In this document: piece after piece, positions 20,006 to 26,566 of the stretch
Layout: the number at the start of each line of letters is the position of its first letter
Numbering within the stretch: position 1 is the stretch's first letter
Made by a program: the position numbers and the translations under genes
From: a virus
Direction: 5' to 3' (one strand)
IMG/VR virus record: IMGVR_UViG_3300046810_000256
Location: 19,007 to 83,006 of that record
Length of the DNA: 64,000 nucleotides
Notes under the pieces: model-generated
Told to the model about the DNA's origin: nothing
The model's database searches: none
The model's input: the letters and a program-made list of their open reading frames with translations, nothing else

Positions 20006-21556
20006 TTAAGCGACGTCGGCGAGAAGGTCAGCTGCTTTGCTTAGAGTCGCCTGGGCCCGCGAAGACTGAGCCGCCTCGGTTTCTTCACTGCACGCGATGT
20101 AGTTGACGTCCTCAAGGAAGACCATGCAGATGGTGTCAAACAAGTCCGGGGATGACAGGCCATCGGCGGCCATGCTCTCTTTGCTGGCGATCTTGTAGCG
20201 CCCCAGCTCATCGAACGAATACGGCAGTCGTGAGCCTTGGTCGATCAGGTCGCGCTTGTGCTTCTTGCCCAGCTTGACCACGCCGTCTTTGATTGCCTCG
20301 GTGGCATGCACGGTGCATTGCGCGCGCTGGTTGATGAATCGCTTGCGGTTCTCGTTGGAATGCGGCTTGGCGCCCCACAGAACGCCCTGAATGATCATGC
20401 TGCCCTCTTGCAGCTCTTCCAGTCGGCGCTGGAACTGCTTACCCATGGCCGAGACGTCGATAACGATGGTGACGTTTGGCAGGCGCATGGCGTAATCGCG
20501 CAGCTTGACCGCCAGCGGCGTCCAGTCCTCAGTTGCGCTGTAGATCGGCACGTCGACCACCTCCACCCGGCGGCGGCGCTCGTTCGCCATCCGGTCGCCC
20601 TTGCCGGTGACGCGGAAGTGGGTGGCCACGGTCTTGTCTCGCCCAACGCCAGCCGCGACGTCGACAACGATAATGTGGCCCCACTCTTCGCCTGGCAGGA
20701 TCGGGCTCGCCTGCTCTATCGCCCGTTCGATCAGCACCGAACTCAGCAGGTATTTGCTGAGGTTGGTCGGGAACATGCCCCGCACCTTGATCTGATATTC
20801 CGGCTCCATCGTGCCGCCGTACTGGAGCCGCTTTTCCTTGATGAACTTGAGGCTGACAATCGGGCTTTCTTCGGAGTTGAATACCAGCGGTACCCAGCCA
20901 CCGCCGCGGTAGATGGACTGGCCGTGGTGCGTCTCCCAAAAGAAACCGGTAGAGCGCGTCGGCTGGCTGGCCATGATGAAGCGGTTGCGCTCGTCGGTCA
21001 GTGCGCCACCGATTACGCCAAAGTTCTCGTCTGGAATGCCGGACGCTTCGTCCGCCAGCCATAGCAGGTACTCGCCGTGGGTACCGGCCAAGTTCTCAGG
21101 CGAGCCGCGTGGAGCGGTACGGGTGGTGACGTACCATGTGGCGCTGTTACCGACCACATAGACTTTCTCAGCTTGGATAACCACGTAGTCAGCGATCCAC
21201 GCATGCGGCCCTTTGCGGATCTCCGCCAGCATGGTGGTGATTTCCTTCCACACACCCTCTCGCACCGTCTTGAGCTTCGGCGCGGTTACATAGGTGTTGG
21301 AATTGAGATAGCACAGCAGGTGCCAGAGGCAGATGACCCCGAAGCTGCGGGTTTTACCAGTACCGTGGCCAGACGATACCGACACCCGACAGCCGTAGAC
21401 TGAGGATTCATCAAAGAGCTCTTGTTGTTGCGGTGTGACATCCATCAAACACGCTTCAACCGCAAAGGCGTACAGGTTGAAGGCGTAGCGTTCGATGAAA
21501 GCGGGCCACCTCGGGTCTGTTTCTAAGCGCAGACGCTGGGCTTTCGGCTTGGCCAT
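20006..21556 (-). CDS. pacB: Terminase large subunit
   Basis: Walker A SGHGTGKT, Walker B WLADEAS, RNase H-like nuclease VVDVAAG...VID...SPDLFD. Confidence 0.95.
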   Translation of the reverse strand: MAKPKAQRLRLETDPRWPAFIERYAFNLYAFAVEACLMDVTPQQQELFDESSVYGCRVSVSSGHGTGKTRSFGVICLWHLLCYLNSNTYVTAPKLKTVREGVWKEITTMLAEIRKGPHAWIADYVVIQAEKVYVVGNSATWYVTTRTAPRGSPENLAGTHGEYLLWLADEASGIPDENFGVIGGALTDERNRFIMASQPTRSTGFFWETHHGQSIYRGGGWVPLVFNSEESPIVSLKFIKEKRLQYGGTMEPEYQIKVRGMFPTNLSKYLLSSVLIERAIEQASPILPGEEWGHIIVVDVAAGVGRDKTVATHFRVTGKGDRMANERRRRVEVVDVPIYSATEDWTPLAVKLRDYAMRLPNVTIVIDVSAMGKQFQRRLEELQEGSMIIQGVLWGAKPHSNENRKRFINQRAQCTVHATEAIKDGVVKLGKKHKRDLIDQGSRLPYSFDELGRYKIASKESMAADGLSSPDLFDTICMVFLEDVNYIACSEETEAAQSSRAQATLSKAADLLADVA

Positions 21557-21607
21557 ATGATCCTTAAACACAAAGGGGCCAGTTCCCCGGCCCCTGTCAC
21601 TCTACGT

Positions 21608-22327
21608 CTACGCCGTTCGCACTTTCAGAGACGGTTTGCGGTCTTGCGTGGCGTTCAGAACGAACGCTTTCCAGCTGCTGCCAGACGCCCAGCAGCTCAA
21701 CGTGGTTTGTGTCGCCCGGAAAAATCCTTTGCGTCGACCTTGGCCAGAGTGCAACACCATGCCGCCACCGCTGCGGGCAAGCCCTTCACGCGCCACCTGA
21801 AAGCTCACCTCCGGCATGGTGCTGGCGTCCTCCATCAACCACATGGGATCGCGCCCACCGAAACCGGCCATGTGTTCCGGGGAATGCGCGCTGGCGGCCA
21901 GAAAGAGCACGCCACAGCCTGAATACTCTGCCTGCTGGCGAAGTCTGATGCTTCTGATGGTGATTCGCAGGTAACCGACCAACCATGCGTGCTCGCCCTC
22001 AATACGCTTGACCAACTTGCTGTATTGCTCACAGCAGCGAAGCATGTCGCCGAAGGGCACGGCCACCATAGTCATCGACTCGGGGCGGCACAGCAGGCGC
22101 CAGAACGCGATAGGCGCCAGCGGGCTGATCATTCCCCGCTCCATCGGATTCATGTCTGACGCCATCGACACCTGGCAGTCAGGCAGCTGCACACTTTCGA
22201 AGGCTCGCGCCAGTTGATCGTCCACTACCATCCCGCACACCTCACGCGCGAACGCGGCCAGGTCGTTGGCGTAGCGCCGGACGAAAGCGGGCCAGCGCTC
22301 GTCATCTTGAATCAGGCTCGTGCTCAT
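21608..22327 (-). CDS. Degenerate paralog of terminase ATPase domain
   Basis: Colinear with PacB N-terminal ~240 aa (DERWPAFVRRYA vs DPRWPAFIERYA; SPEHMAG vs SPENLAG; RRKGFF vs RSTGFF); Walker A lost. Confidence 0.85.
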   Translation of the reverse strand: MSTSLIQDDERWPAFVRRYANDLAAFAREVCGMVVDDQLARAFESVQLPDCQVSMASDMNPMERGMISPLAPIAFWRLLCRPESMTMVAVPFGDMLRCCEQYSKLVKRIEGEHAWLVGYLRITIRSIRLRQQAEYSGCGVLFLAASAHSPEHMAGFGGRDPMWLMEDASTMPEVSFQVAREGLARSGGGMVLHSGQGRRKGFFRATQTTLSCWASGSSWKAFVLNATQDRKPSLKVRTA

Positions 22328-23671: not shown

Positions 23672-23842
23672 CTAAATCTTGAGCCGCATCTGTGCGCGGT
23701 CACATTCGTTTTCACCGTGCGGGAGCTTGTGGGCCAAGGCTTCACAGTTCCTGCGCCCACAATCACGGCAGTAGGTGTAGGCGGGGGCGCTTCGTGGCCT
23801 CCGCCAGATGACGCGATTGCTTTCGCAAAAACGGCAGTTCAT
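23672..23842 (-). CDS. Small Zn-ribbon protein (56 aa, below ORF-track cutoff)
   Basis: MNCRFCESNRVIW...YTYCRDCGRRNCE...; fills the operon gap. Confidence 0.55.
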   Translation of the reverse strand: MNCRFCESNRVIWRRPRSAPAYTYCRDCGRRNCEALAHKLPHGENECDRAQMRLKI

Positions 23843-23868: not shown

Positions 23869-25155
23869 CTAGGCGGGACGCGCTTCGATCATCGCCTGCG
23901 CGTACACCCATCGGCGATTAGCAAAGGCGGCCATGCTTTCGTCTGATTTTTGCTTCAGCGGGCAGTTGATGGCGAAGTCATCGCGCAGCTCTGTCAGGTA
24001 CAGACCCAGCTTCTTCTCTGGCGCTTTCGGCGCGGTGGCCGGGTCGGCGTAGGCTGGCACGGGTTTTTCGACCGCCAGCGGCAGTTCAACGCTGTGATAC
24101 GCCATGCAGAAGGCATCAAACAGGTCGGCGGCTGGGAGTTGGGCGGCTGCGATGTGCGAAGGCTTGGCCACGAGATAGCGATTCTCGGCGCTCAACTCAT
24201 AAGGGATCTTTGAGCCCAACAGCACCAGCGGATCACTCAAGCCGCAATCGGATGGCAGCAGCAGCTTCAGGTTTTTATTCCGAATCGCCTCGGCAGTCAG
24301 AACACTGCATTCAGTGCGGCGGTTCACGAAACGCTTGCCGTTGCCACCTTTTGGCAGCGCTTGACCCATCGTCATTCCGTAACACCTGACATGGGGACTC
24401 ACAACGTCTTGAAGGTACTTGAGCAACTGCACGCCATCGCCGAAGGCATCCACGAGAATCGTCGTAGGGGCTGATAGCGCATTGACGTGCCGCAGCAACG
24501 CATCGCCGTAGGACTTCAGATCACCGCCGTCTGTGAGGATTGGATAGCTGGCCACCTCGACCAGTCGGCGGGCGTCAGGGCTGTCATACACGCGCATGTG
24601 GGCGGCAACAGTCATTCCTCCACGACCAGCACCGCCGAGACGGACACCGATTACATGCTTCGCCTCGACACCCTCGGGAATCGGGCTTTCGATGGTCAGC
24701 GCCAGGGCGATATCGGCGTCACTGAGCAGGTAGCCGCGACGATCCTGATTCTGCGCCCGAAGAATCGCGGGGACTTCGTTGTTCGAAGCCATCAATGCAG
24801 GCTGTACCTTGCCTTTGACCACCACTTGCAGCTGGCCAGATGAATTAGGACGAACGATGTCTTTGATGGCCGTCGCCACCGGGGAGGCCAGGTAACTGGT
24901 CAGCAGCGGGCGCAGGCGGTAGTGGGTTTGTGCGAATCGCTGTTTACGGCCAAAGCCTTCCTGAACCGACACGGGCTTACAGTTCGGAACATCTACCCAG
25001 TAATGCACACCACGGGCGGCATTAGCGCGATCCGGCGCCGATACCTTGTAACCTTGGGTGATGAGCCATTGCTTGAAGGACGTCACGTTGCACGCCAACA
25101 GCAGATCGGTGTCGTGCGATTGTCCTTTCGGTTTTACTGCGGGGTTCGACATCAT
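23869..25155 (-). CDS. Protein containing a degenerate paralog of terminase nuclease domain
   Basis: About residues 140-357 colinear with PacB C-terminus (KRFVNRRTEC vs KRFINQRAQC; GSKIPY vs GSRLPY; ADLFDAFCM vs PDLFDTICM). Confidence 0.85.
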   Translation of the reverse strand: MMSNPAVKPKGQSHDTDLLLACNVTSFKQWLITQGYKVSAPDRANAARGVHYWVDVPNCKPVSVQEGFGRKQRFAQTHYRLRPLLTSYLASPVATAIKDIVRPNSSGQLQVVVKGKVQPALMASNNEVPAILRAQNQDRRGYLLSDADIALALTIESPIPEGVEAKHVIGVRLGGAGRGGMTVAAHMRVYDSPDARRLVEVASYPILTDGGDLKSYGDALLRHVNALSAPTTILVDAFGDGVQLLKYLQDVVSPHVRCYGMTMGQALPKGGNGKRFVNRRTECSVLTAEAIRNKNLKLLLPSDCGLSDPLVLLGSKIPYELSAENRYLVAKPSHIAAAQLPAADLFDAFCMAYHSVELPLAVEKPVPAYADPATAPKAPEKKLGLYLTELRDDFAINCPLKQKSDESMAAFANRRWVYAQAMIEARPA

Positions 25156-25442
25156 TCAGCTCCTAGCGGGTTGGCCGTGAACGGCCTCAGATTTTTTGTG
25201 TTCCCGCGGCGGATGGCCGAGGGACGTTTTTCAACAACAGGCTTGATCCACAGCTGCCCTGTTTTGAACAGGAACAGCTCCCACAGCCCAAGCTTGATTT
25301 TGGTGTCACCCTTCTCGTACAGACGCCACGATTCGCGGCTCACGTAGATCAGCTCCCCCGCAGCGGTTTCGCTCAGGCTCGCGTTCTTGCGGGCTTGCCG
25401 GATGTTTTTTGGGGTCGGTTCGCGGTCGGCGGGGAGCGTCAT
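25152..25442 (-). CDS. XRE-family HTH protein
   Basis: IRQARKNASLSETAAGELIYVSRESWRLYEKG. Confidence 0.85.
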   Translation of the reverse strand: MTLPADREPTPKNIRQARKNASLSETAAGELIYVSRESWRLYEKGDTKIKLGLWELFLFKTGQLWIKPVVEKRPSAIRRGNTKNLRPFTANPLGAE

Positions 25443-26566
25443 GCGTCACCGCCGTTATCATCCAGCCCGGCGATATCGGCCATACGCTGGGCCATCGCGT
25501 CTCTCTGCGCTTGTGTGGCCTGCATGCCTTTCGCGTAGGCGTCATTCAGCGCAACCGTATCTACAACGGCCACAGGCGCCTGCGCCGGTTCGATATTCAT
25601 GTTGAAGATGCGGCCCAGCATTTCGAGGTAAGGGCGGGCGTCGTGGATCTTCATTTCCAGCCCATCTTTGGTTTCCTTCACGCCGCCGTACAGAGCCAGC
25701 GCGCCAGGCGAAAGGTGCCGGGTGTCTTTGAGCACGAGCTGGCCAATGCCATTGCCATTGCACTCAGGGCATTCCGGGTTAGGGTCGAGGTTGGCGTCGA
25801 AGCCCAGGCCGCCCAGCTCGTCGAGCACCGGTAACGGCTTGCGCTTCGCGGCCTTGGCTTCGGCCAGCGCCTCAGCATGGCGCGCCTTGCGCTCTTCCAG
25901 CTGACGCGGGGTCATCTGGTACCGGAAATCTTTGCCGTGGCAGCACCGGCAGCAGCGGTAAACGTATTCGACCAACTCCCGAGGGTCTGCCATCGCCGCG
26001 CCGTAGATGCGCTGAATGACTCGCCCGGTGATTTCCTCAGTCTTGGCAAACAGCTCCGCACGCTTGGCCAGCGTGTATGGGTGTTCCTTAACCTTCTTTA
26101 ACAGGCGACTGGCTGCTGCTGCCGCCACTGCATCGGATTTGCACTCGTAGCCTGCATCGAGATAGGACTGAGTGCCGTTTTGTGTGACCAGCCAAAGGTC
26201 GACAAACTTCGCCTGACGGGCGTCGAGATCGTGCAGACTCCCGGCCTGCAAGGCTTCCAGCTCTTTCGGTTTCAGCTTGACCGCTTTCTTCACTCGGGTG
26301 CTGCCGCCTGTTCCGCGAGGCGTTTTTGCTTGCGCCGGAGCACCCGGTACCGCCGCAGCAGGTTTTGCAGCACGGGGCTTTCGGGCTAAAGTAGCAGGCT
26401 TTTTAGGTGTCTTTGGAGAGGTGGCTTTTTGAACGCGGCCAGCACTCACCTTAACTTCTGGCTTTTTAGGGGGTGCAAACACAGGTTTGCCAGCCTTGTC
26501 CGGGGATTGATTATCCTCGGCTGGCTTAGCGCGCTCTTCGATACCCTCGATCTTTTTCCGTGCCAC
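25439..26566 (-). CDS. pacA: Terminase small subunit with Cys-rich Zn insertion
   Basis: RQAKFVDLWL..NGTQSYLDAGY...AASRLLK HTH; CRCCHG and CPECNGNG; GVKETKDGLE. Confidence 0.85.
   Translation of the reverse strand: MARKKIEGIEERAKPAEDNQSPDKAGKPVFAPPKKPEVKVSAGRVQKATSPKTPKKPATLARKPRAAKPAAAVPGAPAQAKTPRGTGGSTRVKKAVKLKPKELEALQAGSLHDLDARQAKFVDLWLVTQNGTQSYLDAGYECKSDAVAAAAASRLLKKVKEHPYTLAKRAELFAKTEEITGRVIQRIYGAAMADPRELVEYVYRCCRCCHGKDFRYQMTPRQLEERKARHAEALAEAKAAKRKPLPVLDELGGLGFDANLDPNPECPECNGNGIGQLVLKDTRHLSPGALALYGGVKETKDGLEMKIHDARPYLEMLGRIFNMNIEPAQAPVAVVDTVALNDAYAKGMQATQAQRDAMAQRMADIAGLDDNGGDA

Follow-up and report, generated by a model that had tools for sequence, protein, structure and literature searches.

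The large terminase belongs to the most thoroughly studied enzymes of phages and is viewed as a catalytic hallmark gene that occurs in single copy. Small proteins of the lambda gpFI type, encoded near the terminase genes, consist of two modules joined by a flexible linker and are reported to help the terminase-DNA complex to meet the prohead; gpFI is not known to contain a terminase-derived domain. The nucleases of large terminases (TerL) with solved structures (E217, 8DKR; Sf6 gp2, 4IDH and 5C12; T4 gp17, 3CPE; G20c; HK97; human cytomegalovirus UL89) carry a full acidic triad. In Sf6 gp2 the triad is D244/D296/D444, of which D244, the first Asp, is a ligand of both metal ions (PMC4678813). 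The gene described here, P0001, lies at 23869..25155 on the minus strand of a 64,000-nucleotide window, which comprises bases 19007-83006 of the 83,006-bp IMG/VR virus record IMGVR_UViG_3300046810_000256; all window features given below are on the minus strand. According to the list of open reading frames (ORFs) and their translations, P0001 encodes 428 amino acids (aa), including the first Met. One part of the protein is a genuine paralog of the nuclease domain found in PacB-type TerLs, the type represented by the TerL of the same element (the resident TerL) and by PacB of P7, D6 and P1. The N-domain and tail that flank this paralog form the older unit, a protein of the packaging operon into which the nuclease domain was inserted. 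The insert is most likely unable to cut DNA and would work by binding. P0001 may be likened to lambda gpFI by build alone.

P0001 is composed of an N-domain, a first linker, the TerL-nuclease-like insert, a second linker and a C-tail, in this order. The N-domain (residues 14-101; 24853..25116) is a basic alpha/beta domain with an isoelectric point of 9.8 and a net charge of +7. In the AlphaFold2 (AF2) model its predicted local distance difference test score (pLDDT) is 91-96 and its element order is b-a-b-(a)-b-b-b-a-a; its hidden Markov model (HMM) matches long and short forms of the protein family. Linker 1 (residues 102-140; 24736..24852) is predicted to be disordered (pLDDT 44-56) and is poorly conserved, with 26-69% identity to relatives. 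The insert (residues 141-357; 24085..24735) has a predicted RNase H-like terminase fold and is catalytically degenerate. It is followed by a second linker of about 25 aa, not confidently folded in the model, and by the C-tail (residues 383-428; 23872..24009), which is modelled as two helices (385-396 and 408-425; pLDDT 88-96) and bears the motif LRDDFA..CPL....E..AAFA.RRW.YAQAM..RP. The initial annotation, made from the letters of the DNA, had described an unrelated N-terminal domain of about 140 aa and a 70-aa tail. The N-terminal part is indeed unrelated to TerL, but it is a domain of about 90 aa (14-101) plus about 40 aa of disordered linker; the tail is present, but as a two-helix module of about 45 aa preceded by about 25 aa of linker. 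The second ATG of the gene, at 25152, is the likelier start, since homologs begin with MSN...

The relationship of the insert to TerL is seen at several levels. By BLASTP, residues 142-353 of P0001 correspond to residues 274-485 of the resident TerL with 34% identity (E 2e-21), and the HMM of the insert family recognizes the resident TerL at E 1e-49 and TerLs generally at E 1e-27 to 1e-51. The AF2 model was obtained with a 71-row alignment (pLDDT 85.7; a 19-sequence alignment gave a poor model, pLDDT 50.9) and reaches a pLDDT of at least 90 over most of the insert. Structure searches were made with the whole-protein model, and the match lists were filled by the nuclease domain. Foldseek matched the model to a terminase nuclease at E 7e-9 with a probability of 1.00, and the VIA comparison of the insert gave Z 19.9 for 8dkr_A of E217 (root-mean-square deviation (rmsd) 2.8 over 198 residues), Z 19.6 for 4idh of Sf6 gp2 and Z 15.7 for 3cpe_A of T4 gp17. 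Over residues 141-360 the predicted RNase H-like fold is common to P0001 and the solved TerL nucleases, with rmsd values of 2.6-3.3 over 176-207 residues and a sequence identity of only 10-13%. With the PacB-type TerLs the insert also has in common the second and third acidic motifs and the N.R..C..A.EAIK helix. Because sequence, predicted fold and the tree of nuclease domains agree, the insert is a paralog of the TerL nuclease domain, as had been proposed. P0001 matches no Pfam family at E ≤ 1 and does not reach the thresholds of the terminase C-terminal families Terminase_6C and Terminase_3C, which says little since the resident TerL also has no Pfam match. The sole signal of P0001 in PHROGs is a weak match of the C-tail to phrog_20565, a family of unassigned function.

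The active site of the insert differs from that of PacB-type TerLs at three positions. The alignment used here comprised 66 nuclease-type domains, taken from 28 full-length TerLs, 26 proteins of the P0001 architecture and 12 stand-alone paralogs. At the position that ends beta-1, Asp is found in all 28 TerLs, Arg in all 26 P0001-type proteins, and Val, Met or Phe in all 12 stand-alone paralogs. The Arg of P0001 is R172 (codon 24640..24642), at the C-terminal end of strand 166-172, where the motif HVIGVRLG pairs with HIIVVDVA of TerL. The initial annotation had read this replacement of the first catalytic Asp correctly, and it had noted that acidic residues remain in TILVDAFG and ADLFD. These can now be located: D236 of TILVD (24448..24450), the second acidic residue, stands at the end of strand 231-236 and is kept in 26 of 26 family members, while the third acidic position is kept in D344-L-F-D347 of ADLFD (24115..24126), at the start of helix 344-353, with D344 in 23 of the 26 and Asp or Glu at position 347. 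The acidic metal-binding triad is thus incomplete in the insert, and no P0001-type domain with an intact triad occurs in the alignment. Two further residues that are invariant in TerLs are lost as well: Gly replaces the Asp of the GVGRD loop in 25 of 26 P0001-type proteins, and Pro replaces the Lys that precedes DxxD by 12 residues in 21 of 26; by its spacing, the latter position resembles K428 of Sf6. The active site is therefore more degraded than had been annotated. Searches of Protein Data Bank sequences with the family profile, TerL and the nuclease-domain profile found no terminase (best trace E 1.1, to 8dkr), so the catalytic residues were mapped onto the solved enzymes, which unlike the insert carry the full triad, by position, strand ends and offsets only. 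Counted from where the aligned range begins, Sf6 D244 coincides with R172, a mapping that is approximate. Within the insert family R172 is invariant, as are the fold-defining residues D236, G241, G264, N278, R280 and P318. Since key catalytic residues are lost, the insert probably binds rather than cuts; the loss of the metal-bridging Asp together with two other TerL-invariant residues supports the earlier suggestion of a nuclease-dead module.

The remainder of the protein has nothing of a terminase. Residues 1-140 show no similarity to TerL by BLASTP or to any Pfam family, and the domain of about 90 aa that they contain has a strand order unlike that of the TerL ATPase and no Walker A/B ATPase domain. 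Unlike PacB-type TerLs, P0001 thus has no ATPase domain in its chain and carries the nuclease-like domain between an unrelated N-domain and tail. As the catalytic triad fails and the ATPase half is missing, P0001 is not a terminase. Assignment of the N-domain to the PD-(D/E)xK or VRR-NUC nucleases was considered and dropped, the candidate acidic and Lys positions being variable in the short forms. No second copy of the N-domain or C-tail was found elsewhere in the 83-kb genome.

An exhaustive, profile-free search among 1.84 billion representatives returned 49 relatives of P0001, whereas a word-based search returned only two proteins. Domain HMMs cut from the family alignment sorted them into four groups: long forms, short forms, forms with another middle, and real TerLs or nuclease-only ORFs. 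Nineteen are full-length homologs of P0001 at 48-85% identity. The N-domain and C-tail of P0001 score E 6e-75 and E 6e-36 with the family HMMs and show the signature motifs of both (HD.DLL..F..WL...YA.TH.RLR and DLRDDFA...RRW.YA..M, respectively). They occur together in a further 38 proteins, some with the insert and some lacking it, and the C-tail HMM matches every positional ortholog (20 loci). The short forms (169-246 aa; P0032-P0043; loci L006 and L012-L022), which are the usual state of the protein, have the N-domain, C-tail and operon place of P0001, joined by a Pro/Ala-rich or otherwise variable linker instead of the nuclease-like domain. In the forms with another middle, the intervening segment is up to about 200 aa, the total length is up to about 350 aa, and the N-domains are diverged but recognizable. 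His-rich HxH/HTH repeats or other linker segments of 140-200 aa were seen in P0055 and P0063, which are positional orthologs (e.g., at L016). The length of the linker in the family ranges from 40 to 200 aa, and because relatives carry other unassigned segments there, it is a general insertion site.

The direction of the event is the reverse of what had been annotated, namely that the flanking domains were added to a terminase module. When the tree is built from N-domain plus tail, the short forms branch off at the base and the proteins with the nuclease domain make up one derived cluster; since the operon position of the gene is fixed, it was the nuclease domain that was inserted and not the flanks that were added. 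In the tree of nuclease domains the Arg-type inserts form one clade with a Shimodaira-Hasegawa-like approximate likelihood ratio test (SH-aLRT) value of 99. Its sister is a group of eight of the 12 stand-alone dead paralogs, with weak support (SH-aLRT 82); the other four, including that of L015, fall among more distant TerLs. The inserts and the eight paralogs are placed beside the TerLs of this phage group in a clade with a support of 95, with distant TerLs outside, and the lineage of the resident TerL is the apparent source of the insert. The stand-alone paralogs belong to the same TerL lineage and have also lost the beta-1 Asp (12/12), but differ from the insert in being separate small genes with Val, Met or Phe instead of Arg and without N-domain or tail. 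Two short proteins, P0032 (L006) and P0033, are nested inside the nuclease-bearing cluster, and the approximately unbiased (AU) test rejects a grouping of the long forms without them (p 0.012, for a group defined once the tree had been seen). At L006 the equivalents of P0001 residues 1-126 and 381-427 are joined in one ORF, and the TerL of that locus is 86% identical to that of the window. The simplest history would be that the insert entered the linker once and was cleanly lost again at least once. It probably derives from the lineage of stand-alone paralogs that were already dead, although this link is weakly supported.

The insert is kept by selection but changes quickly, whereas the rest of the locus is stable. 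Its ORF is intact over about 220 aa in 26 of 26 copies, down to about 40% identity and without frameshift or stop. Nei-Gojobori estimates against five relatives gave ratios of non-synonymous to synonymous substitution rates (dN/dS) of 0.20-0.33 for the insert, 0.13-0.30 for the N-domain and 0.08-0.26 for the TerL nuclease domain, those of the insert being rough because its dS is near saturation. From the intact full-length ORFs and these ratios, P0001 is judged to be a selected gene and its insert to be under purifying selection, and a reading of P0001 as a pseudogene was ruled out on the same grounds. Within the family, the insert is 44-58% identical, compared with 58-83% for the N-domain and tail. 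In the same pairs of genomes the dS of the P0001 gene is 1.1-1.7 and that of terL 0.5-0.8, which suggests older or exchanged alleles of P0001. Over the 6.5-kb packaging locus, contigs from other samples are 93-96% identical to the window, with one exception inside the insert.

The genome is assigned by sequence to the P1-like phage-plasmids of Pseudomonas, and was apparently obtained from a rhizosphere metagenome. The ends of the record share a 127-bp overlap, so the element is taken to be circular or complete. The minus strand of the window also encodes portal, baseplate, tail and lysis genes. Related elements measure about 80-95 kb and include circular plasmids from cultured Pseudomonas, one of which is CP048608.1 of P. 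fluorescens DR133 (80,993 bp). Neither P0001 nor the DNA of the packaging locus had a match in the cultured-phage collection. The resident TerL (P0002; 521 aa; 20006..21571) matches the phrog_2 TerL family at E 3e-32 and keeps all catalytic residues, with the motifs VVDVAA, IVIDV and DLFD. It is 35% identical to PacB of P7 and 33% identical to PacB of D6, and the label PacB of the initial annotation is therefore fair.

The first gene of the packaging operon is the small terminase gene terS (P0003; 375 aa; 25439..26566; Pfam Terminase_2 E 1e-13, phrog_51 E 3e-18). Its product has a long Lys/Pro/Ala-rich N-terminal extension and, within the Terminase_2 domain, a Cys-rich insert (CCRCCHG ... CPECNGNG) with a weak zinc-finger match. 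It is followed by an Xre-type helix-turn-helix (HTH)-like gene (P0007; 96 aa; 25152..25442), whose match to HTH_31 (E 0.003) is below the Pfam cut-off, and then by P0001. ATGA overlaps join the terS stop to the HTH start and the HTH stop to the P0001 start, and GGAG is found 7 nt upstream of the latter. After P0001, before the next gene, lies a 56-aa zinc-ribbon-like ORF (23672-23842) with CxxC...CxxC, which is present at the same place in 20 of 20 related loci (77-91% identity in the close clade, 46-59% in distant loci) and is unannotated in CP048608.1. P0005 (22324-23109) is conserved in all related loci; its last 80 or so residues match the C-terminal ends of many PHROG families that differ greatly in length and have no assigned function (e.g., phrog_9763, 6628 and 11504), and look like a shared C-terminal module. 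Directly upstream of terL is a paralog of the TerL ATPase domain (21608..22327, the gene model following CP048608.1), 30% identical to TerL residues 16-242 (BLASTP E 6e-28), in which Walker A GHGTGKT is changed to DMNPMERG and Walker B DE to ED. It occurs in the Pseudomonas clade and in six of 11 more distant loci. The 36-nt gap between this gene and terL contains a GC-rich hairpin of 9 pairs followed by a weak T-run (21574-21595), which may be an attenuator or processing site; a promoter and terminator scan gave no signal above that of shuffled sequences.

The TerLs of the 20 related loci are 62-91% identical, and the window and these loci have the same gene order: terS, HTH gene, N-domain/tail gene, 56-aa ORF, variable genes, P0005-like gene, optional ATPase paralog and terL. 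P0001 itself occupies the place after terS and the HTH gene and before the 56-aa CxxC ORF. Given the ATGA coupling and the constancy of the order, the N-domain/tail protein is a fixed, co-translated member of the operon. The form with the inserted nuclease domain is limited to the clade of the window. Stand-alone dead nuclease genes adjoin terL in four loci, either upstream or downstream (L016 9881-10840, L019 10590-11309, L021 9922-10815 and L015 1842-2909), and have Val or Phe for the first Asp. In two other loci the terL ORF (L018 9550-11868; L022 8918-11248) is 773-777 aa long and is interrupted in frame, at about residue 70 and close to the P-loop, by some 240 aa that probably represent an intein. 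The terL of a related plasmid is annotated as a 'Hint domain-containing homing endonuclease', and P0058 and P0073 (863-869 aa) resemble the L018 and L022 ORFs with the insert.

The role of the insert that we favor, at about an even chance, is that of a tethered, non-cutting look-alike of TerL, held by the N-domain and tail at the packaging complex or DNA, where it would compete for the site of the TerL nuclease. P0001 would be anchored through its N-domain and tail, either on the packaging complex or on pac DNA; the dead domain would occupy a site normally used by the TerL nuclease domain, on DNA, on the portal or on another terminase subunit; and the insert would thereby tune cleavage or assembly with no catalysis. 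The Asp residues that remain may do no more than form a pair with the Arg that has arisen. The HTH and zinc-ribbon neighbors and the basic N-domain would fit an accessory set for DNA recognition. Several observations weigh against such a role. The place in the operon shows co-expression only and not a function in packaging; the insert is dispensable in nature, having been lost in P0032 of L006 and in P0033, and most relatives never carried it. The N-domain has no Pfam match in P0001 or in 21 relatives. Its atlas neighbors (small viral hypothetical proteins, DUF1257, the RNase HIII N-domain and the RnlA DNA-binding domain) all have template modeling scores (TM) of 0.55 or less and are leads only, and as a lead only the N-domain may be a nucleic-acid-binding fold similar to that of TBP. 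The insert also evolves about five times faster than the nuclease domain of PacB-type TerLs (dN 0.32-0.70 versus 0.06-0.15), and nucleotide identity of the locus to related contigs falls below 85% only at about 24186-24806, inside the insert, in stretches of equal length. This peak of divergence is odd for a tethered look-alike, since a mimic of a very conserved partner would be expected to be conserved.

Rapid change of this kind, the patchiness of the dead copies and the parallel dead ATPase copy fit better with a role in conflict, in which the insert, the ATPase-dead paralog and the stand-alone dead nucleases would be TerL mimics that engage a variable outside partner, either a host immune sensor of the TerL fold, such as the STAND NTPases of the Avs1-3 type, or the terminase of a rival phage or satellite, as decoy, sponge or poison subunit. 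We consider such a role rather unlikely. DNA-end binding or a decoy function had been suggested in the initial annotation; fast change and patchy occurrence agree with a mimic or decoy but do not demonstrate it. The group does hold at least three forms of dead TerL domain (inserted with Arg, stand-alone with Val, Met or Phe, and the ATPase-dead copy), distributed patchily, having been gained and in some cases lost again; no other part of the P0001 gene evolves as fast as the insert, and the divergence peaks there between near-identical relatives; and the higher dS of P0001 than of terL in the same genome pairs is suggestive of allele exchange. Avs1-3 bind the large terminase directly (PMC13581612), and 8dgc, in which Avs3 is bound to terminase, is among the fold matches of the model. 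On the other side, the overall dN/dS is well below 1, a relaxation of constraint after the loss of catalysis can also raise dN, and the gene belongs to the packaging operon rather than to an early region or an anti-defense island. Binding of a TerL-like fold is moreover expected to trigger Avs and not to silence it, and neither dead TerL-domain paralogs nor a terminase decoy turned up in a limited literature search. The insert might instead be a functionless passenger, left over from a partial duplication of terL in a linker that tolerates insertions and slowly being lost. The linker is highly variable in the family (40-200 aa, with His-rich HxH repeats in some relatives), the insert has been lost at least once while the gene was kept, and the terL locus is rearranged in other ways too, by inteins and extra domain copies. 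We nevertheless hold a passenger to be quite improbable, as the 26 diverged copies are all intact over about 220 aa to about 40% identity, dN/dS is 0.2-0.3, Arg172 and many fold-defining residues are invariant, and the model is confidently folded with pLDDT of at least 90 over most of the domain. Nuclease activity through a rearranged site (e.g., D236, E282 and D344/D347, with Arg172 binding phosphate) would agree with the retention of two of the three classical acidic positions, with the near-invariant E282 that replaces a Gln of TerL in the conserved N.R..C helix, and with the 'drifting' of active-site residues documented among terminase nucleases (PMC4678813). It is nonetheless very unlikely: the lost Asp is the ligand common to both metal ions, two more residues near the site that are invariant in TerLs have been lost as well, and the apolar residue at the beta-1 position of the 12 stand-alone paralogs points to inactivation as a common theme.

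New in the present analysis are the family of the host protein, the direction of the event, the additional losses in the active site, the zinc-ribbon neighbor and the local peak of divergence. The locus is a case of a terminase domain that is catalytically disabled, maintained by selection and spliced into another protein of the operon, and it is one instance of a broader tendency of these phage-plasmids to keep dead single-domain copies of the terminase. The system is testable, as P. fluorescens DR133 (CP048608.1) is a cultured carrier and the natural insert-less allele of L006 can serve as a control. If it is true that the dead copies regulate packaging, they would be a new kind of subunit for pac-type terminases. 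If they target host sensors or rivals, they would represent a new principle of counter-defense; that dead TerL copies are kept to engage immunity of the Avs1-3 type or rival terminases, and would thus be the first natural decoys made from a phage's own hallmark protein, is an unlikely but consequential possibility.

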